64,000 nucleotides of DNA from Sporopachydermia quercuum (lineage: Eukaryota), in NCBI GenBank assembly GCA_001599295.1, contig BCGN01000005.1, forward strand, positions 620,001 to 684,000. The letters are read 5' to 3'. A program made the translations under genes and the position numbers. The notes beneath the pieces were generated by a model. The model searched no databases. It was not told where the DNA came from and saw nothing but the letters and a program-made list of their open reading frames with translations. Below are positions 320 to 27,574 of this stretch, piece by piece. Position 1 is the first letter of the stretch, and each line of letters opens with the position of its first letter.

Positions 320-2164
320 CTACCTTAATTGTGAGAACGCATCTAGAAGACCTGAAGAACCAGCGGTTTGGATTTTATTCTTTTCAAACACTTTCCAGAA
401 TCTAAGTGTCTCGTCACCAGCTCCTGTAACTATTGTTTGACCATCTGGGCTCATTGCTAGGTATAACACTCTATAACTATGGCCGGTGAGAGCTGCAGCC
501 TGCTGCATAGATGGGTATTTCCAAATAACGATTTGATTCTTAGAGAAACCATGTGTAGAAACTAATTCATTGGAATTCTTAGACCAAACCAAATTGCACA
601 CTTGAGAACCTGTGTCCACATCAGAAATTTTTTGTCCCGTTACTGTATTCCATATTTTGATCCTACGATCTGCTGTTCCTCCTCCTGACGCTAGTAAACC
701 CCTTTGATGAGTACTCCAGGCTACTGCTTTGACTGCGGCAACATGCCCCATAAGCTTGTGCAGAGGTTGTCTCGCCATTGCTCCATCCCATACTAGTAAT
801 TTATTATCATTACCACCAGATGCAAGCTTATTATCTTCAAGGTTCCATTTTAACCCACAGACCTCTTGTCGATGTTCAGTTAATTGTCCCATATAATGAG
901 CAGCTTCTCGTACGTCTCTTTGAAATATAATTTTGTCTCTACCTCCAGATGAAAGTATATGTTCGTTCCAAGCCAAGGCACCTACTCTTTCTGTATGACC
1001 AGTCATTGTTCTTGTTTTCTTACATAGTTCTGCATCCCAAATTTCCACCAGTCCCTTAGATGTTCCTACAGCCACATGGGTCCCTGCACCAATCCACGAT
1101 ACACTGGTGACTGAATCTTGTGGTCCTAGGTCGCATAGTCTATTTACACTTCCTGATTGAGCATCCCATAGATAAACACACGTGCCTAGTCCAACTGAAA
1201 GTATATCTGTCGACCCCCAATCGACCAGGTTCAAATAAAAATCGTCCGCTAATTCAGGAGCATCAAGAACACGATATGGTAACTTAGAAATGTCTCTTTG
1301 CTTCTTATGTGGTGATAAAAGTAATTTCTGACTATCCATTCTTACCGGAGATAAAGAATAGAGATCTGTTTCTGGTGTATATGCTGACATGTTTACCCTT
1401 GATGGTGATTTGTAGGTAAAAATGTTAGTGCTTTTTCCCCTCGGTGTTGTTACTATGTTAGGTCCTGGGAAGGGATTTTGTTCTGAAGGTGGTGTGCGCT
1501 GAAGAGGATCTGAGGGCTCTGGTCTTTGAGGTGGCACATCTGGTATTTGAGCTCCGGAGCCTGCCGAAAGTTGTTGTTGCTGTTGCTGTTGGATTAAGGA
1601 GCGGGTTTCAATTGAACCATCCCATGAAGCTGCAGAGTTGTTTAATGAAGATATTGATGTTGATGTTGAAGGTCTTGATAGACTTGTAGATGGTATGGCT
1701 GCAAATGGAACATTATCACCGAATATCTCAGCCTTAAGGATTGTTGAAAACGTTCGATCAGCAGTTTCTTGTTTCCTTAGATCTATATCGTTATCTGCTG
1801 TGTTTGGATTTACTCCTGTTGGTCCTGTTACTCCTGCTGTCAGACCTCCATCCAAATCGTTATCGCCACGACCATTGTTCCCATTGGTAGATGTAGAATT
1901 AATACTGTTTGAACTTCTGGATTGTCTGAAAGATGAGTTCTCGTCTTTCAGACTAAAAGCTGCCTGTAGATCAATACCAGTTCTGTTAGGAATGTATCTA
2001 TCTCCATATTTCTTCTTTTTCTTTTGCCTCGTGGGGGAGAATGTTGGGGAGCCCAATAAGCCCAATGAGCTACTTGATGATGGTCTTTCTGGAGACAGCA
2101 TCAAGCCTCTATCAACGGACCCTATAGGTGGTGTTGTACTTCTGAAAGGAGGTGTTGTGGGCAT
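320..2164 (-). CDS. CDH1: APC/C co-activator Cdh1/Fzr1 (WD40)
   Basis: 614-aa ORF with C-box DRYIPNR, many S/T-P CDK sites, PYRVLDAPELADDFYLNLVDW start of the WD40 propeller, and a C-terminal QLR (IR-tail variant). Confidence 0.95.
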   Translation of the reverse strand: MPTTPPFRSTTPPIGSVDRGLMLSPERPSSSSSLGLLGSPTFSPTRQKKKKKYGDRYIPNRTGIDLQAAFSLKDENSSFRQSRSSNSINSTSTNGNNGRGDNDLDGGLTAGVTGPTGVNPNTADNDIDLRKQETADRTFSTILKAEIFGDNVPFAAIPSTSLSRPSTSTSISSLNNSAASWDGSIETRSLIQQQQQQQLSAGSGAQIPDVPPQRPEPSDPLQRTPPSEQNPFPGPNIVTTPRGKSTNIFTYKSPSRVNMSAYTPETDLYSLSPVRMDSQKLLLSPHKKQRDISKLPYRVLDAPELADDFYLNLVDWGSTDILSVGLGTCVYLWDAQSGSVNRLCDLGPQDSVTSVSWIGAGTHVAVGTSKGLVEIWDAELCKKTRTMTGHTERVGALAWNEHILSSGGRDKIIFQRDVREAAHYMGQLTEHRQEVCGLKWNLEDNKLASGGNDNKLLVWDGAMARQPLHKLMGHVAAVKAVAWSTHQRGLLASGGGTADRRIKIWNTVTGQKISDVDTGSQVCNLVWSKNSNELVSTHGFSKNQIVIWKYPSMQQAAALTGHSYRVLYLAMSPDGQTIVTGAGDETLRFWKVFEKNKIQTAGSSGLLDAFSQLR

Positions 2165-2372
2165 TTTGCTGATGATGGTGTTGAATCTGATTGTGTGGCA
2201 ATGAATAAATTGCTATTGGCTATACTAACAATAAGTTATTCGGTTGATATAGCAAATTGGACTTTAATCGCCAGATCTGAATATAATCTAATGTACAGAG
2301 TAGTTGTGAAACTACCATTTAGTTTGATTATCTCACAGTTGATACGTAAAGCTGCCAATTGAAGATGTAGTG

Positions 2373-2380
2373 GTAAACAA
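2373..2380. promoter_or_regulatory. Forkhead-type site GTAAACAA upstream of CDH1
   Basis: Exact match to the Fkh1/2 consensus about 210 bp upstream of a cell-cycle gene. Short motif that could be chance. Confidence 0.3.
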
Positions 2381-3084
2381 GACTGTACAAACCTTTCCTT
2401 GTGGTACAGTACTCTACTGTTCTTCTTTGTTATTCCTTGTATTTCTGTCAGATGGATGGTACAACAAAAAGAATTAATAAGACTTCATTAGAATAAATCC
2501 TGAAGAGAGTTCAATTGATATTTGTGCTTAATACTTCTTTCTCTGGTTTATTCTTTTATCGCAGATGATCTAGTGTTCCGTCTGGACCTTCAATACATGC
2601 ACTATGCGTTTCCTATCAGTTGCCCAACAGCTAAGCTTATTTTGTTGGACTTTTTTNAATATTCCAAAATATCTTTCGCAATCTGTTTATATCAATCCTT
2701 TTGGTGGTTTGAATCTTCTCAGTTTACTGCTTTAATTGCTTGTCTCTGTTGTCGTCAAGCCAGCTTTTTGCTGGTACTTGTTCTACCTTTTGTAATGATA
2801 GGATTATTCGTTTCCAATACTAGCCTCTTTCCCTTCCCCGCTATAAATGCTAATTCAGTGCCTTTATTTGCAATTAGCATTTTTTTTTTTAAGGAAATGA
2901 AATTGATTTTTCATTAGCAGTTAATAAATGTTTGATAATAAAATGATGAACGTGCATAGTGATGATAGTTTAAAGTAATCATATGCGTTTAAAAAGATGG
3001 CATTTAAGGTGTTCAAAACCTTTCTTGTGCATTTGGTTTAAGATTTTTGGGAGCTTATCGATAAAGTGAGGTGACTGGGTGGAA

Positions 3085-3147
3085 AAGAACAGAAAAAGGG
3101 TCTAGTTAACCTTTTCCCAACGGTTACAAGACCCTTTTTCTGTTCTT
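3085..3147. repeat. Perfect 19-bp inverted repeat (hairpin)
   Basis: AAGAACAGAAAAAGGGTCT (3085-3103) and AGACCCTTTTTCTGTTCTT (3129-3147), with an extra inner TAACC/GGTTA stem. Confidence 0.9.
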
Positions 3148-3769
3148 GAATAAGGAGTGAGATGCAATGTGATGGAGACTGGAGAAGAAGCAAGAGAAGG
3201 TGCGTAAATGATTGTGAACGGATAGAGAACAGATGTTAATAGTTTATGCGGACAGACCAGGAGAAAGGGAAATAGATAAAATGTTTATCCCAACTGATGG
3301 CGCTATGGTATAAGCATGCTGGTTAGTCGTAATGTGGAATGGAATGGAAGCAGGTGGGAGGCGTGACCGTATAGCGGAAGTGATATAGAGTGGACTGGAA
3401 TTTACATCTTTTCCGAAATATGTTAGGCATTTGATGGTCAAAATACTGAGCAAGGAGGGAGTAGAAGAAATGATGGTAGAAATGAAGAAAGTATACAAAA
3501 GGAACGATAAAATTTACTATTAAAAGGCAATAATCACCATTGGATGTTTCCGTAAGTAGTTTAACTGGATGCTACCTTCTGCTAGTGTTATTTGTAGCAC
3601 GTAANGAGAACATCACTATATTGGCTTAGTATTTCCTTTCTATTATTACTGTAAACACATTACTTTTATTGTTCTTTTTCATTCAGAATATCAGAACATG
3701 AGATATCCTTGCTATGATTCTATATCGTCGCGTTCTATCATATAATACAAATCAGAGATCAGTGAAGAT

Positions 3770-5329
3770 CTAATCGTCGTCACTTTCAGGTTCCTGAATC
3801 TCTTCTTCCTCTAAACCAACCGGTATAACAAAAGAATTCAACATGATTTGATCAGCATAGGACCAATCTTCAGAACCCGATTGTCCATCATTATTAACAT
3901 AAGCTTTAGCACCATTNACACCATAGCTCTTGGTGATAACATCAACCTCAACATCTTCTTCGTCTTCTAACAGTCTTTGATTGATTCCTTCTTCAGATTC
4001 TATATCAAATTCGTCTTCTTTCTCTTCATATTCTACATTTTCTTCGATTTCCACGAAATCCGGTGCTAATGCGCTCCATTGTTGAGGTATCGGAACACCC
4101 CATATATAAACAGAGCCACTAATGTCACAACCAGCAATCATAGCTTTCCGGGGATTCCAAGCAACATTGACAATCTCATCTCTTGGACACTCCAAGATCT
4201 TTAATAGTGTGCCAGTGCCAGTTTCCCATAAATATATCTTCTTCTCAGTATCATGTGTGGATGCACATAAGAAGTCACCTTTTAAAGAGAAAGATATCGA
4301 GTTCCAAGAGATCTTGCCAATAATTACTTGATAGGACAAAACCACTCTCAGTCTTTGTTCATTCCCCGGTTTGATTTCACCGTTTTCTACATCAAATTCA
4401 GATTTTACCTCATTCTCGTTTCTGCCTTCGCGTTCATTATCACTTTCATCATCATCACTGTCAGACTCGTTCTTACTATTTGCCATTGTTGACCATTCTT
4501 TAACTCGATCTACTGTGTAATTATTAAAGCCCACAGGTAGGTTCATCTGTCTAACTACTTTATCACTGCAATTGAGGGCAAGGTAATTTCCCANTGTATT
4601 GATTATCATTCCAAGTATAGCAAAAGAACCAGAGAGCTTGTTACTTGATATTAGTTTCTTTGTTTCAGTAGATATAATACCTAAAGTTCCTCTTGAAGTC
4701 CCTACGAAAATATAGTTGCCATGAGGCTTCGAGAAAACTAAAGATGTAGGTTTTATAGATCCTGGATAGAACCTTTTTCTAACTGATGATCCTCGTGAAT
4801 GATCTTCAGGTGATGCAGAACCTCCAGCTGGAGACGATACACTTGAGTCAATGGATTTTTCTTCTTCTTCCATGATAGTACTCAGGGGGACAACTAATGG
4901 GTTGAACTGATTTGAGAAATCAACATAAAAAGGACCTGATCCTTGTAGAATAACAACAAATGCAAATTTATTCGAAGGATGCATTTCGGCCATTACAACA
5001 TTTTCCTCAAAATCATATCTCCGTAATGTTGATCCTGTAGATAAATCCCATAGAACTACTGTGCAGTCCTTGCTTGATGATAGTAAATACCTACCGCACG
5101 AGGACCATTGTAAAGATCGAATGATTTGNGTGTGACCTTTCAACACTTTCACTACACGATTGGTACCAAAATCATATATTCCAATCAATCCATAGTCGCT
5201 TCCGCATGCTAGATAGTCACCACTGAGATTGAATTGTGTTATATAATTATGCCCAAAATCTATTGAATGCACCAATGTGTCTGGGAAATCTTGGGCCACA
5301 GCAAATGGGTCTAATAGTGATAGATTCAT
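3770..5329 (-). CDS. SWD1: COMPASS subunit Swd1/RbBP5 (WD40)
   Basis: N-terminal MNLSLLDPFAVAQDFPD, WD40 repeats, and the signature WSALAPDFVEIEENVEYEEKEDEFD. Confidence 0.93.
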   Translation of the reverse strand: MNLSLLDPFAVAQDFPDTLVHSIDFGHNYITQFNLSGDYLACGSDYGLIGIYDFGTNRVVKVLKGHXQIIRSLQWSSCGRYLLSSSKDCTVVLWDLSTGSTLRRYDFEENVVMAEMHPSNKFAFVVILQGSGPFYVDFSNQFNPLVVPLSTIMEEEEKSIDSSVSSPAGGSASPEDHSRGSSVRKRFYPGSIKPTSLVFSKPHGNYIFVGTSRGTLGIISTETKKLISSNKLSGSFAILGMIINTXGNYLALNCSDKVVRQMNLPVGFNNYTVDRVKEWSTMANSKNESDSDDDESDNEREGRNENEVKSEFDVENGEIKPGNEQRLRVVLSYQVIIGKISWNSISFSLKGDFLCASTHDTEKKIYLWETGTGTLLKILECPRDEIVNVAWNPRKAMIAGCDISGSVYIWGVPIPQQWSALAPDFVEIEENVEYEEKEDEFDIESEEGINQRLLEDEEDVEVDVITKSYGXNGAKAYVNNDGQSGSEDWSYADQIMLNSFVIPVGLEEEEIQEPESDDD

Positions 5330-5878
5330 TACGTGTTCATTTCATGAATACTTAAGGCACAAACCCAATATCTACCACTTTTATCGTTTTTATCCTTCTC
5401 ATTAGAACTTATTGATAGTTTACCTATTTCTTCAATCTGTAAATGATATGATAGTATAATTATCCTGTTATACTTCACATTTGATTATGAATTGGATGAT
5501 GAGGATTTGATAGTATGCAAAGTGATGCACCACAGCTGTACCAAGGAAATAAAGTTTTTCAATAGCGACACCTCCTTCCCTCCACCACAAACACGAAATC
5601 CCAACGCGAACTTTTCAAATTTTCAGATAGCATAATCACAAATCATTAATTTTATTTATTCTGGACAGAAAACGCCAAAACTAAAATGAAACGAAATCTT
5701 ACAATGACAAGGCAAGACATTCGAACTATCTTTGTATTTCATAAGGTGTCACTTGAAGGTATTACAATATAAGGTGATGGATTATCACATTTAAAACTAT
5801 TGGTCAAGGGGAGGATTTGTTGGATAAATTGTATCATCTATTACTATAGAAAAGGCTCATTCTGGTTGTAAATATACA

Positions 5879-6757
5879 ATGCGTGGGATTACATTAGTGG
5901 TGGCTATGATGGCCTACTTGGCATCAGCACAAGCATTTCATTTCTATTTAAGTGGTAGTGAGGGCAAATGCTTTTATCACGAGCTGACAGAAGGAACATT
6001 GGTTGTTGGTATGTAGAGTTGCTGTGATAGGATCAAGCTGGATTGAAATGAATTGAAATGATTGGAACAGGATAACTAACAAGTTCACTCTATAGGCAAG
6101 TACCAAGTTGATGAATGGGATGCTCGTATGCAAAACTATATCCAACACGATGATCTTGGATTAGCTATTACTGTTGAAGTACGTTCACACGTTTGAAAGT
6201 TCACTTGAAATTTCACAATGGCAACAATCCCATACTAACTAGTTTTCTATTTAGGAAGTATTTGATAACAATCACCGGGTGATGAATCAACGGGTGAAGG
6301 CCAATGGAGAATTTGCATTCACTGCATTAGACTCCGGTGAACATAGAATCTGTTTCAGACTTACTTCTAAAGGCTGGTTCTCATCTTCTAAAGGCCGTAT
6401 GTTCCTTGACTTCGTTGTTGGTGAAGACCAAGAATGGGATTCAAAGGGAGAAAACAAAATCAACTCTTTATCTTTGAAAGTCAAAGAATTGAACCATAAA
6501 GTTAGAGACATCAAAAGAGAACAAGCTTTAATGAGAGTATGTTAAATATAATTTATAGCAGATACCGATTTTGCAGTCTATTGTTTCTNTTACTAACATT
6601 GCTCTAGGAACGCGAAGCCAGCTTCAGAGATCAAAGTGAATCAACGAACGCTAGAGTTGTAAGATGGACATTTATTCAAGTTTTTGTCTTGGGTGTTACT
6701 TGTGCCTGGCAATTAAATCACCTCAGAGGTTTTTTCATGAAACAGAAATTAGTCTAA
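5879..6757 (+). CDS. ERP1: p24/GOLD ER-Golgi cargo receptor, Erp1/Erp6-like; exons 5879-6008, 6096-6178, 6255-6536, 6608-6757 (214 aa)
   Basis: Signal peptide [54 protein letters not shown], a TM segment and FFMKQKLV tail. Three introns (GTATGT/GTACGT..CTAAC..TAG) join in frame. Confidence 0.92.
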
Positions 6758-7523: not shown

Positions 7524-10500
7524 ATGACAAGATTGGAGGAAACTGGACAGCTTTNGGAAGCCAGCAACTCAACTGAATCCGTTGCAGTTGCAAACGGAAC
7601 CACCAGCGACCAGAAACTACTGGAAGATAATACCGGAGATAATGTTTCACTAGCATCGGATCAAAACGGATTTCTACGGATAAACTCTCCATCAATCCAA
7701 GGTAGTGCTCCGACGACACCCGAAAGAAAATTCCCGTATCTACTAAGACATTCACCTTCCGCTTTCTCTCCTGGTGGCTTAAGTGTTGCATCACCAGGTA
7801 GAAGACGCTTAGATGATCGGTTCCAAACTCGTATAAGTTCATTATACTCTCATCGACCGACGTCACGTACAAACTCACTATTATCCATATCTACCACATC
7901 CGAAGACCCTTTGTATTCGGATTCAAAGCTTAATGCCTTAGAACCAGTTAGATGGACCAAACTACGGCGGATATCGTCGTATTTGTTTTCTGCTACCATA
8001 ACATCTCTTTACGGATCCCCAACGACAATTCTACCTGCGGCAACGATATGTGTCGGTACCACAAAAGGATACGTGCTNGTTTTTGACTATCATCAAATTC
8101 TCCGAGCGGTTTTAGGTTACGGCACCAAAGCAGAAGAGTCCGGAGAAGTATCCGCTTTAGCCGTATCAGCCGATTCCACTGTTCTGGCCTCGGCACATGC
8201 TTCGGGTCATATCTTCACGTGGGATTTAACCCAAGCAATAAATATCGGAGCGGGAATATCCGCGGCTCGGAGTTCCAACAATTTTGGCACCGGTTCCGGT
8301 CCCGGGTTAAAACCTTCCATAGAAATACCTCCTCAGAGTAAATCCGGTTCCGGACATCAACCGGGGGCCAATATTTTACATGTAAACTTTATTGGTAAAC
8401 GACATTCCGCTTTGGTTTCTGCTGATGTTTTCGGAATGTGTTATGCCCATGAATTGGTTAGAGGAGTTCTCGGCAAATCGGTAAAAACGTCTCGAGTTCT
8501 TGGCCGACCTCCATCAGCTAATCAAAATGCCAAAGTACCGAACTCCAAACTCACAACCATTCTAGATTGTTCCGCAATGCCTCTGGGTCCTGTTGTTGAT
8601 CCGTGTGATGAACTTGGGCTCGTCGCTCTTTTAACTCCCCATGTATTGGTGATTGTGTCTACAGTCCCAGTACCTGCTACACAATATAAAACGGGTCGTC
8701 CCAAAGTTCTCGATACCAGATTGGGTATCTCGGGATGTCTTGCCTGGTTCCCCCCCTTGAAGACTCGAGATTCGGGATCAGATTCAGGAAAACACACCGA
8801 ATCAGGATATCCGAGGTTGGCTTACGGATGGGGTAATATTCTAACGGTTTTATCCGTCAAGTCAACCGAGACAAAGAACGGAAAAGATAGCAAGAAGACT
8901 ATTTCATTAGAGTTCAGTAGTAAGAAACGATGGGTAAGTTCAGAAACAATAGTAGCTGTACAATGGGTTTCCTCTAAGATAATTGCCGCTTTAACCAAAA
9001 CTCAACAACTAAGCCTTATAAACGCGGAAAAGATGACGGAATGTGCTTCTGCTGATCTTTTAACTCGACATATTCTTCACAGAGACGTATTTTCGTCACA
9101 ATTGTCTGGTTTGAAGTTTGATACTTCGGCTGAACAAGTTAAGATTTCCGATTTATTTGCTCAATCATTTCGCAGTTTCAAAGGTCGTTTATTCCTTTTA
9201 GGAAGATATGAATTTATGGTGGGCGCATTAGCGAATTGGGCCGATCGGCTGTTAAGTATAATGTCCCAAGGCAGGTATGTGGATGCTATTGAATTAGCTA
9301 GAGAGTATTATATAGGCGAAGAGACTGATTTGGTGATAGTGGGGTTACCAGAAGATGATAAAACAAGACATAAGATGCTTTATAATCAAATACTGGAGAT
9401 GGTAATGGCATCATTAAGGTATACGTTCAGAAAGGCTAGTAAGGATAGCGGAGAAGATAATACAAACAATTTCGGAAATGATATTGAGAATAGGAAACCC
9501 AAAAATATCGGAGATGATGTGTTTACGAATTTCGGAGAACATAGTGATTATTCANGACATGGAAGTGAGACTGGAAGTGAGACTGGAAGAGAATTGGGGA
9601 CTTTAACCGAACTATTACCCGTTTGTTTCCGGGCTTGTGTTGCTGTTGGAGCTCCTGAATTTTTAACCGAACAAATATTCGATTATTTCAATTACGGAAA
9701 TCATTTGGGTTTGTTCTTTGATCTATTAGCACCATTTATTCTCAACAAAGATCTCACAGTATTACCACCTACAGTACTAGAAGCGATGGTTTCTTATTAT
9801 ATCTCTTCCGGTCAAGGAGATAAACTAGAAGAGATAATATGCACAATAGATCTCCGGAATTTAGACTTGCATCTAGCTATTTCTTTGTGCGAAAAACATC
9901 ATCTTCGAGATGCCTTAAGTTATATATGGAATGTGGCATTAAATGATTACATAACGCCATTTATGGAATTTATTAGCCTAATGAATANCGGAAACTATGA
10001 AGATGAAAGGGAACCAAATAAAGTATACGGCTATATTTCCTATATACTAACCGGACGGCAATATCCAACTGATTATATGATTTCTGATGGAGATGTTACT
10101 CTTGTGTCGCGGGCGAAAGCTCAACTTTACTATGCTATCTTCCGAGGTTCCGCTATTGAGTGGCCTCAAGGATCGGACAAGATAGTTGCCGAAGTCATAA
10201 ACGGAAGAAATGATACATCTTTTCCGTATTTATATCTCCTGGTTAAATTCAACCCACAAGAGCTTTTGGCATCTTTTAATGAAGCATTAGAAGATGAATT
10301 TCTCAACTATGATGAACAGGAAGGTGCGCTGTTTGATACGCTTGATTCTCATTCGAATACCATGAAAGTAAGCCGACAATATATTGTGGATATTCTATTT
10401 GAACTATTTGATAGCACTGATTTATCCGAAGATGCGGAAGCGGTTACATATTTTTGGATTTTTATTGCCCGGAACTATCCGAAGTATCCGCAGTTTATTG

Positions 10501-13948: not shown

Positions 13949-14070
13949 TCAATAATGGCCAGGTATTGGCAATAAAGCTTATTCAACTGACTTGACAACA
14001 AATACCATTATTTGATTTACTTCACTTAATGACTTCTGTTTCACATTTAATAGCTGATCTATCTAACTAT

Positions 14071-14108
14071 ATTAACATTCATTAACATTCATTAACATTC
14101 ATTAACAT
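14071..14108. repeat. 10-bp tandem repeat (ATTAACATTC)x3.8 in a convergent 3' gap
   Basis: Read directly. Confidence 0.85.
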
Positions 14109-14145
14109 GATATCAAATGAATTCTTTTATTGATATACAACACAT

Positions 14146-15219
14146 CTATTTACTTTCTTTGCTTTCCTGTTCATCCATCCATTCAAGCGTTTTCCTAATA
14201 CCTGCTTCTAAATCAACAGCTGGTTTATACCCCAAAATAGTCTTTGCTTTAGTAATATTATGATATCTATAAGCACATACAATCTTAACTCTGAACGGAG
14301 TCAGTCCTGGTTCTCTACCTAAAAGCTTTGAGACACCTGCAGATAAATAACCAGCTAAAATAGCTACAGGACGATTTAAAACAATAACCTTCTTATCGAT
14401 ATGTCCATCAGCTTTCCAAACTGTTCTAGCCAAAGTCCAGAAGTAAGTAGGAGCATCATTAGTAATAAAAAATGTTTGACCACCAACATCTTTGGCTACA
14501 GAGGGATCATCACTTAATAGCTTTTCTGCTGCTAAAACATGAGCGTCTGCAACATTTCCAACGTACGTCCAATCGAACAAATTATTATTGTCACCAATCT
14601 GAAATTTAGACTGTCCAAGCTTTGCTACTTGTCGTAAACCAGGGACAAGCTGTCGATCTCCAGGACCAAAAATACCAGCTGGTCTTAAGGCAACAGTTAG
14701 AAAGATGCTGTCGGGATCATTTGCTTCTAACACCATAACTTCAGCTCTTGCTTTGGTATCATTATATGCATCCATTGGAACCGCAGGATATGGATATGTC
14801 TCGTCAGCATTTCTGATGTCTTGACCATTGAAAATTACCCCTGCTGATGATGTATAAACAACTGCTTTGATCCCTAATTCTTTAGCGACCTTCAATAAAT
14901 TAGAAGTTCCATCAATGTTGACTTTTTCGTAAATTTCTTTCTGTTGACCATGAATTGGTGATGCTGAATGAACAATTACATCCGGTTTAGCAGCTTTGAT
15001 TGCTTTACTGACATCTTCCGAGGATGACAAATCTCCTTGATGGAATTCTATCTCTGAGGGATCAAATGTAAAAGATTTTGATAAATGTTCTTTGTCAGGG
15101 AGACCTCTTACGTCAAATACGTGCACTTTTGGTTGTGGTGATAGATCATGAAACTTTTGAACAAGATGTAACCCGAGGAAGCCCGCTCCTCCTATTAAAA
15201 GGACCGATTTGATAGCCAT
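14146..15219 (-). CDS. ERG26: Sterol-4-carboxylate 3-dehydrogenase (C-3 sterol dehydrogenase), 357 aa
   Basis: Probable start MAIKSVLLIGGAGFLG (Rossmann fold), VYTSSAGV, YNDTKA catalytic motif, ALRPAGIFGPGDRQ, DWTYVGNVADAH. Confidence 0.95.
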   Translation of the reverse strand: MAIKSVLLIGGAGFLGLHLVQKFHDLSPQPKVHVFDVRGLPDKEHLSKSFTFDPSEIEFHQGDLSSSEDVSKAIKAAKPDVIVHSASPIHGQQKEIYEKVNIDGTSNLLKVAKELGIKAVVYTSSAGVIFNGQDIRNADETYPYPAVPMDAYNDTKARAEVMVLEANDPDSIFLTVALRPAGIFGPGDRQLVPGLRQVAKLGQSKFQIGDNNNLFDWTYVGNVADAHVLAAEKLLSDDPSVAKDVGGQTFFITNDAPTYFWTLARTVWKADGHIDKKVIVLNRPVAILAGYLSAGVSKLLGREPGLTPFRVKIVCAYRYHNITKAKTILGYKPAVDLEAGIRKTLEWMDEQESKESK

Positions 15220-15491
15220 TGTGAAAATCGAATGACCAGAAAGCTTGAATCTTAACAAATTATAGGCCAAGACGAGCGAGTAAAAATAATNACTTTTTAT
15301 AAAGAATCTTGCCACAATTCAATGGTTTTTACGCTAGAGAAGAAAAGTGTTTATTGATTTGTTGCTGCATGATCAGCCTATTGATCAATGCTGAACGCGT
15401 GGAAATGAAAGGTTGGAGTTTGTGTCAATTGGTATGACATGTTATGTCACACCATGTTGTGTTATGACTGGGATGTTCATGACATATTAAA

Positions 15492-15513
15492 ATCACGCGA
15501 CTTAACACGTGAT
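15492..15513. promoter_or_regulatory. ATCACGCGAC plus CACGTGAT (E-box/SRE-like bHLH sites) upstream of ERG26
   Basis: Two ATCAC-based motifs about 280 bp upstream of the ERG26 start. Confidence 0.3.
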
Positions 15514-15677
15514 CGCAAGGGTAACTGCTGCTTTTATATTTATTGAATAAACTACAATTGATAGAGAGTAATAGGAATAAAGGAGTCACGCAAAATGTTT
15601 ACAAAATGTTTACTGTATTAATTTAGTCTCGGCTCCTTGATCTTGTATATTATTATGTTATGTAATGTAGTATATAA

Positions 15678-17162
15678 CTAAAATGCGAACAGTGAGATTG
15701 GTAAAGTCTTTGCAAGAGTCTTGTCTTCCTCAGAGATTGGCTTACCATTAATTCCGGAAAACTGCTTACTAAAATAGTCAACATATTTTTCTTTGTCTTC
15801 TACTGTATCCTCAGTTGTGGAAGTAGAGGGGGAAGTAAGAGTAGAAGAAGAACTGGAACCGGAACCGGAAGTGGTATTGATAGGTGCAGGTTCTTCCTTG
15901 GTAGCAGTATTTTTGGCACCAAAACTAACATTAGCAGTACCAAAGCTTTGATTAGTTGTGTTNAGCGTAAAGCTTGGTTTACTGCTATCTGATTTGCTAT
16001 TGACTGCAGCTAAAGGTGTTTCCGGCTTACTATCTAACGTTGATGTAGTTGCAGATGTGGTACTTGGTTTAAAGGAGCTGGGAGCAGGATTTGAAACCGG
16101 TTTCTCTTCAGCTTGGTTTCCTGTAGAATTCTCATTGCTTTGTTTGGTTTTCCCTTCACCATTGGATTCGCCATTTACATCTATGCTTTCACGTAATTGA
16201 GACGGTTTCAATGGTTTGAACTTGAACAGGTTGTCATTACTCTTTGGAACAGGGGAAGCAGTGTTTGAATATGATACAGGTGTAGGTGAAAAGGACATTG
16301 GTTCCGGTCTTGAAGAAGGTTTATCAAAAGACAGCTTAGGAGGACTGGTAGGTCTTGGTTCAATAGCTTTTATATCTTTGTCGCTTCCTTTGATAACAGG
16401 GAATTCTTCATTATCACTAATTAACGATAACAGAGTTGATGCAGTTTGACTGAGATTTTGCTGTGAATCTGATTTATTGGCCTCTGAAGATTGAATTTGC
16501 TTTCTAACACTATTTTTGTCATACCTATCGCTAGGATCAGTCATTGCTGATGATCTGAATGGCGATGGCACACTAGAAAACTGAAACCCCGATCTACGCC
16601 TCTCAGATGATAATTTTCCAACAGAAACAACCAGTGGAGACCTTGTCCTCTTTGTCACGTCCTTATAAGGACTTTCCGTTAACTTTGAAATTGGTGTCTG
16701 GGCTTCTGATTTGTGACTTTCTTCTGTTACTTGTTTCGATGCGCTTTCATCTAGTTTGTTCTGCTCTTTCAGTAACGATAGAACTCCTTGCATTTCTATG
16801 TCAGATAACGGTTCCTTACCCTTCTGAGCAAAAAAAGCAGAGAGCCTTTCATTTGGAGATCTTGCACTTATTTCGGACGTATTTTCAATTATTTGTGCAG
16901 GCGTTGATGGTCCTAAATCATTGAATGATGGATATTTCTTAGGTTCTTCCTCGATTGTTTTCTTAGTTGGGAGTTCATCTTTTCTACCATAGAAAAAACT
17001 ACGGACTTTCGACAGCAATGATGATGGCGTACTTGTTTGTTTAACAACTCTCCTCTGGGGTGTAGATGGTCCTGATCGAGCGTAAGGCGAGGATGACGAT
17101 GCACCAAACCTACGGTTCGTTCTCATCACTCTGCTCTGGTCTTGAGATTGGAAAGGGTTCAT
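15678..17162 (-). CDS. NUP60: Nuclear basket nucleoporin Nup60
   Basis: SPY..R followed by the amphipathic helix SLLSKVRSFF, helical region NERLSAFFAQKGKEPLSDIEMQGVLSLL, FKF motif, C-terminal SLFAF. Synteny with TFC3, ERP1 and SWD1. Confidence 0.85.
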   Translation of the reverse strand: MNPFQSQDQSRVMRTNRRFGASSSSPYARSGPSTPQRRVVKQTSTPSSLLSKVRSFFYGRKDELPTKKTIEEEPKKYPSFNDLGPSTPAQIIENTSEISARSPNERLSAFFAQKGKEPLSDIEMQGVLSLLKEQNKLDESASKQVTEESHKSEAQTPISKLTESPYKDVTKRTRSPLVVSVGKLSSERRRSGFQFSSVPSPFRSSAMTDPSDRYDKNSVRKQIQSSEANKSDSQQNLSQTASTLLSLISDNEEFPVIKGSDKDIKAIEPRPTSPPKLSFDKPSSRPEPMSFSPTPVSYSNTASPVPKSNDNLFKFKPLKPSQLRESIDVNGESNGEGKTKQSNENSTGNQAEEKPVSNPAPSSFKPSTTSATTSTLDSKPETPLAAVNSKSDSSKPSFTXNTTNQSFGTANVSFGAKNTATKEEPAPINTTSGSGSSSSSTLTSPSTSTTEDTVEDKEKYVDYFSKQFSGINGKPISEEDKTLAKTLPISLFAF

Positions 17163-17995
17163 TGCTATGATGTTTCTAATTCCTATGGCAAATATAAACC
17201 TGAAAACACTCAGAAATCTCCTCTGATACCACCAAAAGTATTTGAAGCAATTTTTTGAAAGAATCTACTCGTTTCCCATTCTTTTTCATCTTTACTTGAG
17301 CTGAATGTAGAAAATAAGTACGAAGAATGACAAAACGGTATAAAAGTTCTATATGTGCGAAACAAAACCGGAAGTTAGGTATCAGGTGTTCAGGTGTTCA
17401 GTGAAAATGTCGGAAACTATACCAAACGAGATTTTCTCCTATACTATAAGATTTGGGGTGACACATCAGCTGTTTAATTCAAAATATTTTATAATCTTAA
17501 AACCGCCAATACTACGTTTCAAATTCAACTTTTACATACTTTAGTTCTACACTCCAAGCGGAATTCACTACCTCCCCACCAAGATTAAATAGATTCTGCG
17601 AAATTCCGGAAACTATTACATTTCCCTACTTGAAATCTAAAATCTCACTTCAGAAGTACTTCTCCACATCGAGACCTCATATTAGCATTCCTTCACATCT
17701 CTCTCCGTTTCACTCTTATCGTACCAAATAGATTTCTCTATGAGAGAGCAACGCGAGACAATGTCATCCTTCATATTTACTATCTATGTTAGTGTTATTG
17801 ATGTTACTACTGTCAACAGCCTGTTAATATTATTAGCTAGGTGAAATTCTTTCTTGAAATTCGCTGAATAATGTTTTCCAGTTGTTATTATTTCTGACCC
17901 GGTATATGCTTCTATTTTTCCTGCCTCAATAAATAGTAATATCGATATTGATACAGTGCACTTTTGGATGCAATGATTGCTTGGGGTGAGCTACA

Positions 17996-20900
17996 ATGAC
18001 TGAACCTACAAAACGGAGGAAGAAGCCTCTGACTCCAGCGCTCATTATTAAATCAATTATTCACGAGCTTTCATTTTTTGGCCTACAAGGCGCAACCCTT
18101 GATGAACTTTGGGCCCTTGTCGCAGAGTTTTCAGGAGACATTGATCAAATACTGAAATGCGCAATATGGGCATGGCTTATGAGCCATCCGAAATGCTTTG
18201 TGTATGTTGATCGTAAACCTATGGACAAATCGGATTTGAACGACTATGAATATGTGTTTTCATCATTCTCTGAAACCCTCAGAGTTTGCTCTGACGAAGA
18301 AAGTATCTATCTAGCTTTAACTAAACATCCCAAGCAAAACAATCCTATACCTGCGGGTCCTTTTGCTATATTGAGTGATATAGCAAGAACTAGACATTTA
18401 GGCATAACATCTACAAAACTTGCTTTACAAACCAATCAACAACCGAGAAATCTCGGCGCCAAGCTAAAAAGAATTATGGCCGCTAATCTTGTTGTTAGAT
18501 ATCCAGTAGTTATGGCTGGCCACCTTCAGTTCTTGCTGGTTCATTCTAACTTCACTGATAGAGTGCAATTTGACAAATCAGACGCTGTACGTAAAGCGAA
18601 TAAATTAGGGACCGAGGAACTAGAAAAATTGGCGTTGACCTTGATAGAAAAACTGAAAAGCAAAAATAGCTCAGGAATCTACGGAGAACGGAGATTATAT
18701 GAAGAGTTAACGGCTGTGGGAGCTACAACCGAGAATCTGAAAACAGTAAAGAAGTCCCTAGTGAAAATAGGTGTTCTGAAGGAAGTCGTAGCTGTAGCAA
18801 AGAACTCTGCTACGTCCAAACGTTATAGATGTTTACAATACGTCAAGGAGTTTCACCCTGGAGATCTAACGGATAGACATGATGCTAGTGACGATGACAG
18901 CGAGAACGATGAAGATCTCATTGGAGATCACGACCATAATGAAACAGAATACAATGATGATTCTGTCAATAACAGTGATTTAATGCCTGATCCTGACGAT
19001 ACCATTGAACTAGAGATATCAAACCAGCCTTTTTCTTTATCGTCAACAGACGAAAATACCATAAAAGATGATGTTTCTACTACCAATATAACTATCAGAA
19101 GAGCCATTGGATACAATCCCGATTTTGGTCCTTGTCTCAACAGATTTGTCCCATTGGAAACTCAGTTTTTCTCAGTGATTCAACGTAATCCTGGCATATC
19201 TTCTATGCAGACACGAAGAATTCTCCTGGGTGATTATTGTAAGAAGGTGTTTGATCGTTTGGTCGACAATTTGATCATAGATTATACTAATATAAACAAA
19301 TCAATTCAACCAGAAGTATTAAAACATTTAACTCTAGTTAAGGGTTATGATTTCAAACTTAAAGTGCGTTTCTGGAGGCTATTCACTTACGAGGACTATG
19401 CACAATCTCATAATATAAATATACCTTCCGATTCTCGCTGGGGCGAGTTCTTTGATGATCCTTCTACTGATTTTGTTTCTTACCTGGCTGTAACAGAGGA
19501 TTGCACATTATTAGGTTCAATGAGATCTCTGCGGCTATTGAATGAATCTCTGAAGATGAAATTCAAGAACAGGATGGTTTCTGGAGTAAAGAAAGGCAGG
19601 CCGAGGCTAACAGAAGAACAGCTTAGAGAGAGAGAAGACAAGGCCAATGCTAAAGGGAAAGGGAAAGGCAAAGGATCAACAGTGAAGACAGAAACTGGTA
19701 AAGGCAGAGGACGACCGAGGAAGAACCCTGCCATTGTTAAGAGTGAAAATGGTGAGAATGCAGTTAAAATTGAGAATGAAAACGAAAATAACGGTATAAT
19801 TGATGAGGATTTGCCTGTTAGAGCAGCATTGGGTACGAACATTGAGGAGGATCACAGCACTGAGAGTCTGGAAATGACAAATAAGACAGAGATGGAAGTA
19901 AGCAGGAAAAGAGGAAGACCACGGAAGACAAGTAATACAAATGAAGCTAAGAGTAAGAAAGCGAAGACAGAAAATGCTGGGAAAACGGGGATAATAAATG
20001 AACCAAAAACCATAACGGAGACTTTGGAAACCTCGGAAACAATGGAAACCATGGAAATAATACCAGGAACAATCCCGGAAAATATATCGAGAACAACAGG
20101 GTCCTTAGATATCGAGCCGAGTTTACAATCACATAATTCTTCTCACACTCGTGCAATCTCACCAGCTACTTCGTCATCTTCTAACCAAATTTTCCCCCAA
20201 GGAAACGCAGTTGAAACATTATCTGCATCTACATCCGCAACTGCATCAAACTTAACTATGCCTGTTGAAACACACCCACAAGAAATGCGTTCTGTTTCAT
20301 CATTTCTCTCCTCTCAAACATATACACCTATACCAAACAGGAAAACAATTACATCAAAAACAATCAATTCCACCTGGAAAAGCAAACTTAAGCAACTCGA
20401 AAAAGAGAAGAAGCAAAACAGCAGTCATATCTTTACCAATAAAAGCTTCAATTCAAAATCCAGACAGTCCATGATTTTAGGCATAGTAAAGGATAAAAAA
20501 CTAGCCTTTGGTGGTAGCCATATGATTAGAAGCCTGAAAGATAAGTTAGGCAGATCGATTGATAAGAAAACGCTTGACAGAGATGTTGATGTATTAGTAG
20601 CCGAGAAGAAAATAAGAAGAGTGGTAATAGCTTTACCAGCCGATGCAACGGGGGGAATTTCCTACAGATCTGTGCTTATATATGGCAGTTCTGGCGAAGA
20701 GACAGATGAATTAATTAGTAAGCTTAAACAGAGAGTACTGGAATTAGAACGGAAGAACAANAGTGAGATTGCCAGTGAATTGAGTAAAGCCCGAGAGATC
20801 GTAGTATTAGATAAAAGCCATTCGGTTTGGGACCAACAGAGAAAAGCAGCGGAGAAGAGGAAAAAACGATTAGAGTCGCTAAAGGGAAATGGCCAGCCAA

Positions 20901-22708
20901 CTAGGGATAGGGAAAATAGCCGAAATAGTACCAAGCTTGTTCCGCTGAAAGAAGGGTTTGGGGAAAAGAGCTTGCGACTGTCGGATGAGCCTGATGGAAA
21001 AGAGAAAGAAAAAGAATGGAAAGAACGACGGAAAATGGCAGTAAAGACAGAGGGAAAAACGACCGTAAAAACGAGGGGAACATCAGAGGTCAGACCAACG
21101 GAGCTAAACTCATCCGAAAGCAAGGTCAAAAGCATTTCCGAGAAATCTCGAAAACCAAAACCTCGGAAGAAACGGAATAACAGCACTCAGGATATCTCCG
21201 ACCCGCTCTTAACCTTAAACATAGTCCATGCTAAAGGCAGCAAACTGAAAGAGAGGAAACATGAGCCTAAAACTCAAGCAACAAGCAATGATGACTCAAA
21301 GGTTTTCCCCAGAAGAATAAGGCTTTCCGAAGGGGTAAATATTAATGTCGAATTGCTGTTTAGACTGGTGATCGTATCGAAGATGCTCTCAAACAATGGC
21401 GGCATTGATTGGGATCGGCTGAGTATTTTACTAGATGGGCTGCCAGTGTTTTTATTGAAAGCCAAATGGACGTCAGTGAGGTCCAAAATTGGTGGCCAAG
21501 CTACAGTTTTTTTTGCTTCTCAAGCTTTTGAGAAAATCGTTCTGGAAAGCATTGCTGATGGTTCATTAGAAGTTAACGATTTAGAACATATGGATTATGA
21601 GTATTTGGTGGCATTCTGGAAACAGAAGGACAATTTGTTCACAGAAGATGTGGTCGTTCCTTTGTTCAGCGATGTTGAAGCTATTGAAGCAAACTACGAG
21701 TTCAATGCTACTGCAAATGAATCGGTCGACTTCCTAGCCAGCTATGAGAATGCTTATTCAACAATCACCAGGACCGAGATAATAGCTGAGTGTGATTTTT
21801 CATGTATCAGTTATAATAGTGCACAGCTACAGATAACCAGTGGAAACAAAGAGCGAGAAGTTAAATCAGATAGATCAGATGGACAACTGGAAGAGGTGAT
21901 TCAGACTATTAAAGGAATAACAGCTACCATTGAAAAAGAATATGAAAGTGAAAAGGCTAAAGAGGTGTTACTACAGTATGGCGAATCAACCGTTGAAAAC
22001 GCAGTAAGGAAAATGGAAGAGGATAAAATTGTTATTTATGTTCCTGGGGACCATGAGAAACGAATTCCTGGTAGAAGTTTTACATTTTCTGAGAAATTCT
22101 ACGGTTCATTGCAAACAAAGATGCCTGAATGTAATTTACAAGATGTTTTTATGTTTCATGATGTAATGAAACGAGAATTAATCAAAAGAAATGGCATAAT
22201 GCTTGATTATGTTCAGACAGACAGCGCAATGATCAGTTTGTTGAGCATGATAAGTAATCAGGAGATCGATCTCATAAGAGTTGATTTGAAAACGAGTCCT
22301 GATAAATTGATAGATGGCTACGTCTCAAGAGTAGTTGATAGATCTAAACTTGACTGTGGACTTTTAGTAAAGCAAACGGGGAAACTTAAAATAGAACCAA
22401 AAGACAAAGTTTTGAATATCCAGCCTCTGCTGGATAAAAATGGTTGTACAAGGATTTGGATTTCATTGTCAGGTGGACTAAATAAGGATATATTCCATGA
22501 TTTGATTAGAAGCTTATTGTTTAATATATGTTTAAGACCAGGTATACCATACAAGGTGCTGAAAAGCATTATGTCTATCACACTGACCACCGATGAATTT
22601 GATGAATTGCTATGTTGGCTTGAAGATAATAAGATTATCCATAGGGGACCATTAGATGGTCTATGGGTTGAAGATGTGTGGTATAGAGCATTGAATATTG
22701 GAGTATGA
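17996..22708 (+). CDS. TFC3: TFIIIC B-box-binding subunit (tau138/Sfc3)
   Basis: 1570 aa with N-terminal IIHELSFFGLQGATLDELW, a winged-helix segment ILSDIARTRHLGI, IDKKTLDRDV, three AT-hooks and C-terminal RPGI..LCWLED..GLWV. Divergent from NUP60 as in S. cerevisiae. Confidence 0.85.
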   Translation: MTEPTKRRKKPLTPALIIKSIIHELSFFGLQGATLDELWALVAEFSGDIDQILKCAIWAWLMSHPKCFVYVDRKPMDKSDLNDYEYVFSSFSETLRVCSDEESIYLALTKHPKQNNPIPAGPFAILSDIARTRHLGITSTKLALQTNQQPRNLGAKLKRIMAANLVVRYPVVMAGHLQFLLVHSNFTDRVQFDKSDAVRKANKLGTEELEKLALTLIEKLKSKNSSGIYGERRLYEELTAVGATTENLKTVKKSLVKIGVLKEVVAVAKNSATSKRYRCLQYVKEFHPGDLTDRHDASDDDSENDEDLIGDHDHNETEYNDDSVNNSDLMPDPDDTIELEISNQPFSLSSTDENTIKDDVSTTNITIRRAIGYNPDFGPCLNRFVPLETQFFSVIQRNPGISSMQTRRILLGDYCKKVFDRLVDNLIIDYTNINKSIQPEVLKHLTLVKGYDFKLKVRFWRLFTYEDYAQSHNINIPSDSRWGEFFDDPSTDFVSYLAVTEDCTLLGSMRSLRLLNESLKMKFKNRMVSGVKKGRPRLTEEQLREREDKANAKGKGKGKGSTVKTETGKGRGRPRKNPAIVKSENGENAVKIENENENNGIIDEDLPVRAALGTNIEEDHSTESLEMTNKTEMEVSRKRGRPRKTSNTNEAKSKKAKTENAGKTGIINEPKTITETLETSETMETMEIIPGTIPENISRTTGSLDIEPSLQSHNSSHTRAISPATSSSSNQIFPQGNAVETLSASTSATASNLTMPVETHPQEMRSVSSFLSSQTYTPIPNRKTITSKTINSTWKSKLKQLEKEKKQNSSHIFTNKSFNSKSRQSMILGIVKDKKLAFGGSHMIRSLKDKLGRSIDKKTLDRDVDVLVAEKKIRRVVIALPADATGGISYRSVLIYGSSGEETDELISKLKQRVLELERKNXSEIASELSKAREIVVLDKSHSVWDQQRKAAEKRKKRLESLKGNGQPTRDRENSRNSTKLVPLKEGFGEKSLRLSDEPDGKEKEKEWKERRKMAVKTEGKTTVKTRGTSEVRPTELNSSESKVKSISEKSRKPKPRKKRNNSTQDISDPLLTLNIVHAKGSKLKERKHEPKTQATSNDDSKVFPRRIRLSEGVNINVELLFRLVIVSKMLSNNGGIDWDRLSILLDGLPVFLLKAKWTSVRSKIGGQATVFFASQAFEKIVLESIADGSLEVNDLEHMDYEYLVAFWKQKDNLFTEDVVVPLFSDVEAIEANYEFNATANESVDFLASYENAYSTITRTEIIAECDFSCISYNSAQLQITSGNKEREVKSDRSDGQLEEVIQTIKGITATIEKEYESEKAKEVLLQYGESTVENAVRKMEEDKIVIYVPGDHEKRIPGRSFTFSEKFYGSLQTKMPECNLQDVFMFHDVMKRELIKRNGIMLDYVQTDSAMISLLSMISNQEIDLIRVDLKTSPDKLIDGYVSRVVDRSKLDCGLLVKQTGKLKIEPKDKVLNIQPLLDKNGCTRIWISLSGGLNKDIFHDLIRSLLFNICLRPGIPYKVLKSIMSITLTTDEFDELLCWLEDNKIIHRGPLDGLWVEDVWYRALNIGV

Positions 22709-23354
22709 CCCTAGAGTGGGAAAAGTTATGCAATAATAAGATCAAGAAAGATAATCGATATATGCCATATGTTTTCTATTCTTTCGGATGACTGGAAATA
22801 CGTTTGATGTGTTTTAAGCTTGAAAGAGAAATTTCGCAGAAGATGACTATAATTTGATTTAATGTGACTGAATTTCGGAGATTATATAAAATTACGGAAA
22901 TAATGTTTGATCCGCTATTGCTAAGCATCATAAGTTCGGCACGATAGAACACCATAGTTCTGGAATAACTTGTTTAATTGATTAAACTTGCAAATATTTC
23001 ATATTTGAATGTATTATAATTTATATAATTGTACCATTATGTACACTATGATGTATAATAAAAAATCCATCTATGCTGGCCGGCAACGCTACTTGGGCAA
23101 TCATGTATCCTCCCTTATTTTCTCCGAATTTATTTTCTCCGTTATTCTTTGTTTCATGTCTTCGGTTCGTTTAGGTTCATTATTTTCTTTCTATCATTAT
23201 CATTTCAATTTCTTATTATCTTAATATATAAGCAAATCTCTCGCCGAAAGCTAAACCAAAACAAAACTTACCTTCTGTATTATCTTTGATTTTCTCCTGG
23301 CTCTCCTACCTATAAATCATCTTCGCTCTCTTTAAATTCATACACACAGCAATA

Positions 23355-24314
23355 ATGGATGACGAACTGTAAGTATCAGCTGATAGTGATTATCAACTTA
23401 TCTTCAGAATAAACATTCCAACAAACATTCCATTATAATGAAAGCATCAAAAATCATCATATCACTAAATCTGACACTAACAAATGCTCTTTGTAGATCT
23501 CTAAGTGCATCAACATTAGCTGCATTAACAGAGTTCCGTCAGGAGCAGAAGCAAAGGGAAGAACATTTTGCAAAGCTATATCAAACAGCAGAGAACCAAT
23601 TTGAAGAAACCGATGATGATGAAGTGAAAGAAAAAGGGATGGAATTATTTCAGGAAGATTGGAATTTGTCCCAATTTTGGTATAACGACGAAACATCAAG
23701 AATCCTTGCTGAATCAATTCTGGAAGGTGCTACAAAAGATACATATATAGCTGTTATCAGCGCTCCATCAGCATATGCTGCTATATTGAAACTGCCACAA
23801 CAAAAAATTCCCACTCAAAACATTTATCTACTAGAGCATGATAACAGATTCAAATTGTTAGGAAAAGATAAGTTTCTGTTTTATGATTTCGCCAAGCCAT
23901 TTGATCTACCAAAGGAACTTAAAGGCAAGTTTGATAGACTGATAGTCGATCCGCCATTCTTATCAGAAGAATGCCAGACAAAAGGTAAGTTGGCTTTGAT
24001 CAGCATTTGATTGGATTTTATGTTGTTTGTCAATGTAATAATTTCCATAAGAAAGAATAAAAAGAACTGATTCTAACAACTGTCAAGCATCATTGACTGC
24101 ACGATGGATGCAGAAGCTCGGTGAGGATAATATGCCATCAAAGGACAACAGAGTTGTGATTTGCACTGGTGAAAGAATGGAACATTTGATTGTTGACAAG
24201 CTTTATCCTGGTATGAGGACAACTTCTTTCTATCCTGGACATACTAACGGGCTGAGCAATGAGTTTAGATGCTATGCTAATTTTGAGTCCAAGCACTGGA
24301 AGTACTCCCCGTAA
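23355..24314 (+). CDS. EFM5: eEF1A lysine methyltransferase Efm5/N6AMT2; exons 23355-23368, 23497-23984, 24088-24314 (242 aa)
   Basis: MDDELSLSASTLAALTEF, EDWNLSQFWY, DPPFLSEECQTK, GLSNEFRCYANFE. Two GTAAGT introns join in frame. Confidence 0.92.
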
Positions 24315-27490: not shown

Positions 27491-27574
27491 GGGGAAGTAG
27501 AATGTTGAGAATGTCAACTATTGGTAGGTTTTATTATAAATGAATAAACGAATTAATTGCATTGGTTGTTAAGG

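Follow-up and report, generated by a model that had tools for sequence, protein, structure and literature searches.

Does a group of genes that flanks centromeres in other budding yeasts still hold a centromere in a yeast where none is visible? We address this question for a 64-kb stretch of DNA from Sporopachydermia quercuum (contig BCGN01000005.1, positions 620,001-684,000, the whole of which we call the window), in which eight genes at 320-24314 follow one another in the order CDH1(-), SWD1(-), ERP(+), VPS8(+), ERG26(-), NUP60(-), TFC3(+), EFM5(+). This block is very probably the inherited ancestral pericentromeric group Anc_CEN4, its eight genes clustered and their internal order unlike the pre-duplication order. 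Under this reading, the Anc_CEN4 region would have given rise to the CEN1 and CEN7 neighbourhoods of S. cerevisiae after whole-genome duplication. As for the centromere itself, the chance that it is no longer linked to the block falls a little short of even, a centromere inside the window is a minority prospect, and one nearby but outside the window is unlikely.

Hession, Byrne, Wolfe and Butler (PLoS Genet 2025, PMC12711049) mapped the centromeres of nine species by Hi-C, and their main text reports that centromere locations are conserved across Saccharomycetales, Saccharomycodales and Phaffomycetales while centromere structures change, the latter including motifs of 17-200 bp, inverted repeats and Ty5-like clusters. 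Rearrangement near centromeres is described there as small inversions or arm exchanges (PMC12711049). A definition of centromere-linked ancestral linkage groups is given by Haase et al. (Nature 2026, PMC13017519); in their Supplementary Note 3, ERG26 and EFM5 are the genes on either side of ancestral CEN4, and in H. uvarum, by their account, the flanking genes are ERG26 and RPN9. As far as these sources go, their Anc_CEN4 group has ERG26, EFM5, TFC3, VPS8, SWD1, ERP, CDH1 and NUP60 in common with the window (PMC13017519, PMC12711049). The original prediction for this DNA had read the block as a CEN1/CEN7 neighbourhood that predates point centromeres. Our analysis bears this out, and the same conclusion appears in the two papers (PMC12711049, PMC13017519); the idea was right in kind and is not new, the greater age of the neighbourhood being already published.

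Genes were called from a six-frame list of open reading frames (ORFs) with the help of Pfam, of sequence searches in the PDB and of related loci. The related loci were the 26 returned by one metagenome scan with ERG26, eight of which (L001-L003, L006-L009 and L011) were annotated by tblastn and Pfam. The features of the block are listed below, with AT denoting the fraction of A+T.

320-2164, minus strand: CDH1, activator of the anaphase-promoting complex/cyclosome (APC/C), Cdh1/Fizzy-related; Pfam PF24807 (CDC20/Fizzy WD40), 7.6e-124
2165-3769: gap from the CDH1 start to the stop of SWD1; 1.6 kb, AT 0.649, no convincing gene
3770-5329, minus strand: SWD1, COMPASS subunit; top PDB matches are the COMPASS component SWD1, 3.9e-62 and 1.3e-61
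5879-6757, plus strand: ERP, p24-alpha protein of the ERP1/ERP6 kind; exons 5879-6008, 6096-6178, 6255-6536 and 6608-6757
7524-12392, plus strand: VPS8, CORVET subunit; Pfam Beta-prop_VPS8 (2.1e-63), TPR_Vps8 (1.3e-56), TPR_VPS8_2 and fungal Vps8 RING
~12922-13947, plus strand: probable small intron-containing gene, read by eye in the 1.75-kb space between VPS8 and ERG26
14146-15219, minus strand: ERG26, sterol C-3 dehydrogenase; Pfam 3Beta_HSD, 1.4e-82
15220-15677: intergenic region 5' of ERG26; 458 bp, AT 0.666, one CACGTG site, no AT-rich core
15678-17162, minus strand: NUP60, nuclear basket nucleoporin, divergent and of low complexity; assigned from a language-model Atlas, the family of its relatives and syntenic relatives
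17163-17995: divergent intergenic region between NUP60 and TFC3; 833 bp, AT 0.652, no centromere-like feature or CDE pattern
17996-22708, plus strand: TFC3, TFIIIC tau138; PDB tau 138 kDa subunit (2.3e-22), Pfam DUF6581 (1.3e-66) and B-block_TFIIIC
23355-24314, plus strand: EFM5, lysine methyltransferase; exons 23355-23368, 23497-23984 and 24088-24314; Pfam N6-adenineMlase, 3.5e-40

All eight Anc_CEN4-flanking genes were thus identified (8 of 8), seven of them by family-specific Pfam or PDB matches or by full-length syntenic alignment. They lie inside 24 kb, and the sole interruption is the probable small gene at 12922-13947. We infer that eight consecutive genes from one ancestral region are far beyond chance. 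The best PDB matches of CDH1 were FZR1/Cdh1 (500 bits, 7.1e-149) and S. cerevisiae CDH1 (481 bits, 3.8e-143), against only 347 bits (1.5e-102) for the best CDC20 chain. The four Vps8-specific Pfam families of VPS8 were all matched at the curated cut-off, and ERG26 is 66-80% identical to the ERG26 of the 14 closest among the 26 metagenome loci.

Spliced products support the two intron-containing members of the block. Residues 8-214 of the 214-aa ERP product align to intronless syntenic p24 ORFs (46% in L001, 43% in L003); exon 3 matches Pfam EMP24_GP25L, and both of its PDB matches are TMED9, which is of p24-alpha type. The 242-aa EFM5 product aligns over nearly its full length to intronless homologues (55.5% to L002:967-1701, 51% to L007:12662-13384), with its start at 23355, in a 14-nt first exon, rather than at the ORF start at 23438. 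Intron donors in ERP, EFM5 and ENT, the next gene after EFM5 (25430-27490, plus strand), are GTATGT, GTAAGT or GTACGT. The putative small gene at 12922-13947 has, by eye, a signal-peptide-like start, a Cys-rich middle and a Ser/Thr-rich hydrophobic end; its ORF pieces matched no Pfam family.

The original prediction had named the eight genes from the letters alone, and their identity, place, order and strands are upheld in all eight cases, for seven by Pfam, PDB or syntenic alignments and for NUP60 on weaker evidence. Its label of an intron-rich yeast stands as well, with three introns in ERP, two in EFM5 and three in ENT and every spliced frame open. As a complete inventory the list fell short, as it missed the putative gene at 12922-13947, which we recognised by eye.

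NUP60 is the weakest of these identifications. The language-model Atlas ranked 'putative Nucleoporin Nup60p' first for this ORF (score 0.92, low recognition), and HMMER, run in full against 1.84 billion representatives, gave 16 relatives at E<=0.001. An alignment of the query with 15 of the 16 relatives, P0012 being omitted (alignment A1), contains short motifs common to the query and its relatives, and one relative, P0010, bears the JGI name 'nucleoporin NUP60'. When the A1 profile was run against all ORFs of the 26 loci, exactly two matched, one in L006 (2.7e-43) and one in L007 (5.6e-39), and each is the immediate upstream neighbour of ERG26 and shares its strand, just as the window NUP60 does. 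The ORF had no Pfam family and no match in the word-indexed library, and PDB searches by sequence and by profile returned chance matches only. The NUP60-family ORF of L006 contains four 48-nt tandem coding repeats (4318-4509), and none was reported in the window NUP60.

The arrangement of the block can be compared with those of the annotated loci, all given here in the window orientation.

Window: CDH1- SWD1- ERP+ VPS8+ (small gene+) ERG26- NUP60- TFC3+ EFM5+ ENT+ ILV1-
L003, Saccharomyces-like, chromosome VII type: CDH1- ERP+ ERG26- CEN EFM5- SWC4 CUL3 PEX31 TFG2
L002, Hanseniaspora-like: CDH1- ERP- SWD1+ VPS8+ ERG26- CEN EFM5-
L001, Hanseniaspora-like: CDH1- ERP- SWD1+ VPS8+ ERG26- CEN RPN9 TIF35 ERV25 RAD33 RFA1
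L006 and L007: ERG26- NUP60-, with TFC3 and EFM5 (EFM5 in L007 only) on the opposite side of ERG26 at a distance of 5-6 annotated ORFs

The convergent VPS8-ERG26 pair is common to the window and both Hanseniaspora-like loci, and NUP60 in tandem upstream of ERG26 is common to the window, L006 and L007. The order in L001 equals that of the H. uvarum genes from g000977 to g000968, and the numbering continues with g000967 (unnamed), g000966 (TFC3) and g000965 (EFM5) (PMC13017519 Supplementary Data 2). By these ids, EFM5, TFC3 and the unnamed gene of the H. uvarum CEN2 region parallel EFM5-TFC3-NUP60 in the window. Both H. uvarum CEN2/L001 and the window have ERG26 convergent with VPS8, followed by a divergent SWD1/ERP pair and then by CDH1. 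L001 differs from the window in that SWD1 and ERP are inverted together as one pair, ERP is intronless, and RFA1, RAD33, ERV25, TIF35 and RPN9 stand with a proto-point centromere between ERG26 and the TFC3 group. The S. cerevisiae-type CEN7 locus, L003, shares with the window the relative order and strands of CDH1(-), ERP(+) and ERG26(-), with EFM5 close by. It differs in its CDEI-CDEII-CDEIII centromere between ERG26 and EFM5, in the opposite relative strand of EFM5, and in the absence of SWD1, NUP60, TFC3 and VPS8, which in S. cerevisiae lie on the sister chromosome I.

A closer collinearity had been claimed in the original prediction, namely that interleaving the two sister regions reproduces the order and orientation of six genes with only VPS8 and EFM5 moved. 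This claim is doubtful, the interleaving of ERG26 and NUP60 being arbitrary, a free choice. Compared with a pre-duplication order composed of the published CEN4 placement (PMC13017519) and the S. cerevisiae maps of chromosomes I and VII, CDH1-SWD1-ERP agree, and VPS8, the order of ERG26/NUP60, and both the order and the strand of TFC3/EFM5 differ. Because ancestral CEN4 is placed between ERG26 and EFM5 (PMC13017519), NUP60/ERG26 and TFC3/EFM5 would also be swapped relative to the ancestor. The window order is closer to L001 and L002 than to this pre-duplication order. VPS8 may have relocated on the Saccharomyces side, since it adjoins ERG26 in the Hanseniaspora-like loci and by the H. uvarum ids. 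Judged by shared adjacencies in the sequence, it is plausible that the window order would be nearer the older state.

Several points weigh against this reading of the block and its history. NUP60 orthology is weak, with a best single-sequence E of 3.3e-09 and neither a Pfam nor a PDB match, and the JGI-named P0010 is itself within the profile used as the query. The polarity of the arrangements is unrooted. The order and strands on S. cerevisiae chromosome I are deduced from systematic names. The H. uvarum order comes from gene-id numbering, of which L001 backs only g000968-g000977 (ids as in Supplementary Data 2 of PMC13017519), and equating the unnamed g000967 with NUP60 is a guess. The main texts of the two papers, gene-map figures aside, do not name TFC3, NUP60, VPS8 or CDH1 (PMC12711049, PMC13017519), and the gene maps in their figures may already show or contradict the arrangement in the window.

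The block might also be ordinary conserved microsynteny, its centromere link in other yeasts being incidental, which we consider improbable. Other adjacencies of S. cerevisiae do occur in the window, namely CAB1-KRE28 and SSS1-RRP1 (identity from Pfam), but these are pairs and the block is eight genes running. In the three controls (L001-L003), mapped centromeres are bordered by these very genes, and centromere-associated linkage groups are reported to be significantly richer in genes than the remaining groups (P = 0.0161; PMC13017519). If the block is instead the inherited Anc_CEN4 group, its cohesion would reflect the way in which pericentromeric neighbourhoods change, mostly through small inversions and exchanges of arms, as we infer from the two papers (PMC12711049, PMC13017519).

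In the species treated in both papers, as far as their texts go, a mapped centromere lies 5' of ERG26, whereas in the window NUP60 stands there at a distance of 458 bp and no centromere is visible (PMC12711049, PMC13017519). A scan for point centromeres (RTCACRTG, then 70-200 bp of >80% AT, then CCGAA) matched nothing in the window. On the controls it found L003 9454-9566 (CDEI-II-III, with a 100-bp CDEII of 90% AT) and the CDE-like L002 2727-2874, both 5' of ERG26. For a proto-point centromere we looked for an AT-rich core (<300 bp, in a compact untranscribed spacer, GCG motifs flanking it), and the window reached at most 0.80 over 150 bp (27641-27790). The top 150-bp AT windows of the controls reached 0.907 (L001), 0.86 (L002) and 0.893 (L003), and all three fall in the ERG26 5' spacer. 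The AT-richest 3-kb stretch of the window, 22965-25964, leads the next by merely 0.001 and was not used.

The H. uvarum motif AACGCA-N5-TGCGTT occurs once in the window at 2 mismatches, against 1.28 expected. In L001, the RPN9-ERG26 spacer has a 150-bp core of 90.7% AT (9123-9272) and matches to this motif at 9562-9578 and 9752-9768, with 1 and 2 mismatches and 300-500 bp from the core; core and motif matches agree with the published H. uvarum CEN2. The 21-bp W. anomalus motif GTTTCTYSAGTTATATCTSTG, as given in PMC12711049, had 0 matches in the window at <=3 mismatches and no tandem copies. No array of the B. discipulorum type, (GTGGTTTT)n, appears in the tandem-repeat list, and no pattern search was made for it. 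An Rfam search of the window returned tRNA only.

Evidence for larger centromere structures was equally lacking. The 64 kb contain no repeat family >39 nt of the kind that a Ty5 cluster would leave, and no retroelement Pfam family was found in the 132 ORFs scanned of 168 listed spacer-overlapping ORFs (of at least 45 codons). Nor does the window hold an inverted repeat of the Barnettozyma or Komagataella type (0.5-4 kb, near identity); its only inverted pairs are two of 31-33 nt with 77-79% complementarity, 24-30 kb apart. The longest spacer of the window is ~2.5 kb, and spacers within the block measure 458-1753 bp with an AT of 0.649-0.687. Three DNA runs of one organism match the stretch at full identity (contigs totalling 16.5-17.1 Mb), and their contigs continue without a break from 93.9, 20.0 and 15.3 kb to the left of the window as far as ~34,948, a point inside the tRNA-Met gene 34927-34998(-) at which all three end. 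Because the contigs break even at a 72-nt repeated gene, the span that they cover probably holds no multi-copy Ty5 or long terminal repeat cluster and no large perfect inverted repeat. Alignment of these contigs to the stretch gave no insertion specific to one isolate that could point to a centromere. Any centromere still linked to the block would be short, non-repetitive and not AT-extreme; among the published kinds, as the sources describe them, the window data leave open only the short-motif type of Phaffomycetales and the featureless type of H. menglaensis, both in unique intergenic regions of 1-2.4 kb (PMC12711049).

These absences are compatible with the block being a relic of a former pericentromere, through relocation, arm exchange or a lineage-wide loss of linkage, an explanation to which we give nearly even chances. 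The 64 kb have no gene-free stretch >~2.5 kb and no repeats, the unbroken contigs to ~34,948 argue against a Ty5-cluster or large inverted-repeat centromere in their span, and the ancestral centromere site 5' of ERG26 is taken by NUP60 at 458 bp. Relocated centromeres are on record in B. californica (CEN2, 250 kb) and C. sargentensis (CEN3, ~60 kb) (PMC12711049). However, far relocation is reported for just 1 of 49 mapped Phaffomycetales centromeres (PMC12711049). Haase et al. moreover describe centromere-linked genes as staying near Ty5-cluster centromeres in other orders, with significant retention outside the point and proto-point orders (PMC13017519).

The competing possibility is a short unique-sequence centromere inside the window, with a small motif or featureless and epigenetic, for which we hold a tentative expectation well below even; its likeliest places are the two ENT-flanking spacers, 24315-25429 and 27494-29211. 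These belong to the following region.

24315-29211: synteny junction, comprising the EFM5-ENT spacer (24315-25429), ENT (25430-27490) and the convergent ENT-ILV1 spacer (27494-29211)

Centromeres in ordinary spacers have precedents, in that those of Starmera quercuum are reported as ordinary 1.2-2.4 kb intergenic regions with only a 17-bp motif, and those of H. menglaensis as featureless (PMC12711049). A centromere would be expected at the junction of two pericentromeric arms, because ILV1 lies near CEN1 in some Phaffomycetales and CEN4-CEN1 arm exchanges are described in Barnettozyma (PMC12711049); in the window, ILV1 lies 5 kb from EFM5, exactly where the synteny of the block ends. The 3' end of EFM5 points toward the centromere in L002 and L003, and in the window it points toward a 1.1-kb spacer and then ENT. 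At 1718 bp, the ENT-ILV1 spacer is of unusual length for one between convergent genes, and it tops the AT of the window at 120, 150, 200, 500 and 1000 bp. Its AT excess is nonetheless modest, at 0.80 over 150 bp against 0.86-0.91 in the three controls and about the extreme expected of 64 kb, and the spacer may hold a small gene (by eye). Of the known motifs, that of W. anomalus is absent and that of H. uvarum at chance level. Overall, the junction 24315-29211 is the least unlikely candidate centromere site, and an improbable one in absolute terms.

Other candidate sites, unproven, are less likely. The spacer 5' of ERG26 (15220-15677) is the positional counterpart of the mapped centromeres and is only 458 bp long. 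The spacer between NUP60 and TFC3 (17163-17995) is flanked by genes in the way that CEN1 is in S. cerevisiae. The CDH1-SWD1 gap (2165-3769) is the third; it is otherwise featureless and contains a perfect inverted repeat whose 18-bp arms lie 27 nt apart (3085-3102/3130-3147), seen by eye and shorter than the length threshold of the repeat search. A TB2_DP1_HVA22 gene in this gap was rejected, as the match (E 0.0024), the sole Pfam match among 10 gap ORFs, falls under the curated cut-off. A gene-free region upstream of NUP60 at the ends of L006 and L007 was likewise discarded, L006 having a 680-codon open frame and normal GC.

Short tandem arrays were also noted. Both ENT-flanking spacers hold short perfect arrays, (AATCACAT)x3.9 at 24782-24812 and (TGTGAGA)x4 at 27575-27602. 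A degenerate 14-bp array (5.1 copies, 77% matches, unit TTAGCGTTATAGTA) lies at 36821-36891 in the spacer of cytochrome-b5-like and Zn-cluster factor genes, among the most AT-rich 80-bp stretches, and two of its units contain CCG or GCG. As motif-array centromeres, the arrays at 36821-36891, 24782-24812 and 27575-27602 found no support. Just downstream of ERG26, the repeat (ATTAACATTC)x3.8 at 14071-14108 is one unit (10 bp) shorter in runs X2 and X3, a copy-number change that is the only difference from the window in 19.9 kb of runs X1-X3.

Elsewhere in the window, a pantothenate kinase gene (Pfam Fumble, CAB1-like, plus strand) adjoins a gene with the kinetochore Sos7 domain (KRE28-like, minus strand; Pfam 5.9e-26) at 43978-46287, an adjacency that S. 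cerevisiae has as well (YDR531W/YDR532C). At 53612-55048, a Sec61-gamma/SSS1-like exon fragment (Pfam SecE, 6.5e-05) adjoins a Nop52/RRP1 gene, both on the minus strand; SSS1 and RRP1 also adjoin in S. cerevisiae (YDR086C/YDR087C).

The host is very probably a budding yeast outside Saccharomycetaceae; it has CUG as leucine and many introns. The window has 36.5% G+C and a mean AT of 0.635. Of the 931 codons of the leucine box in 14 ORFs, 86 are CTG, and the codon is read as leucine because the CTG codons checked (5 of 13, in CDH1 and NUP60) all stand in L/I/M/V/F alignment columns (5/5). In the PDB search CDH1 was slightly nearer human FZR1 than S. cerevisiae Cdh1, a ranking that would agree with a lineage outside the fast-evolving Saccharomycetaceae. 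The contig total of ~16.5-17 Mb compares with 9.0-13.7 Mb for the nine assemblies in Table S1 of Hession et al. (PMC12711049). Twenty single N letters occur in genes and spacers, 16 of them before 21 kb (e.g., 4594, 5129, 9555, 15963 and 20761); these letters, X in translations, may be masked ambiguous or heterozygous calls.

That centromere neighbourhoods outlive centromere structures in budding yeasts is already established, and the window adds one species to this general point. It illustrates that the block can exist without a repeat-rich or AT-extreme centromere inside it, and the locus could bear on two alternatives, a centromere replaced in place or one moved within its neighbourhood. 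The window also combines adjacencies that are otherwise split among Hanseniaspora, Saccharomyces and L006/L007, and it might assist in assigning polarity to the rearrangements near ancestral CEN4. One speculative and on balance unlikely scenario is that this yeast keeps the oldest surviving arrangement, EFM5-TFC3-NUP60-ERG26-VPS8-ERP/SWD1-CDH1, with a short non-repetitive centromere at the EFM5/ENT/ILV1 junction as the site of an arm exchange with a second ancestral centromere region. If this were true, Saccharomycodales and Saccharomycetales, with their centromere 5' of ERG26, would have it at a later position in the same neighbourhood, and the locus would make it possible to order the local inversions that went along with the switch of centromere type.

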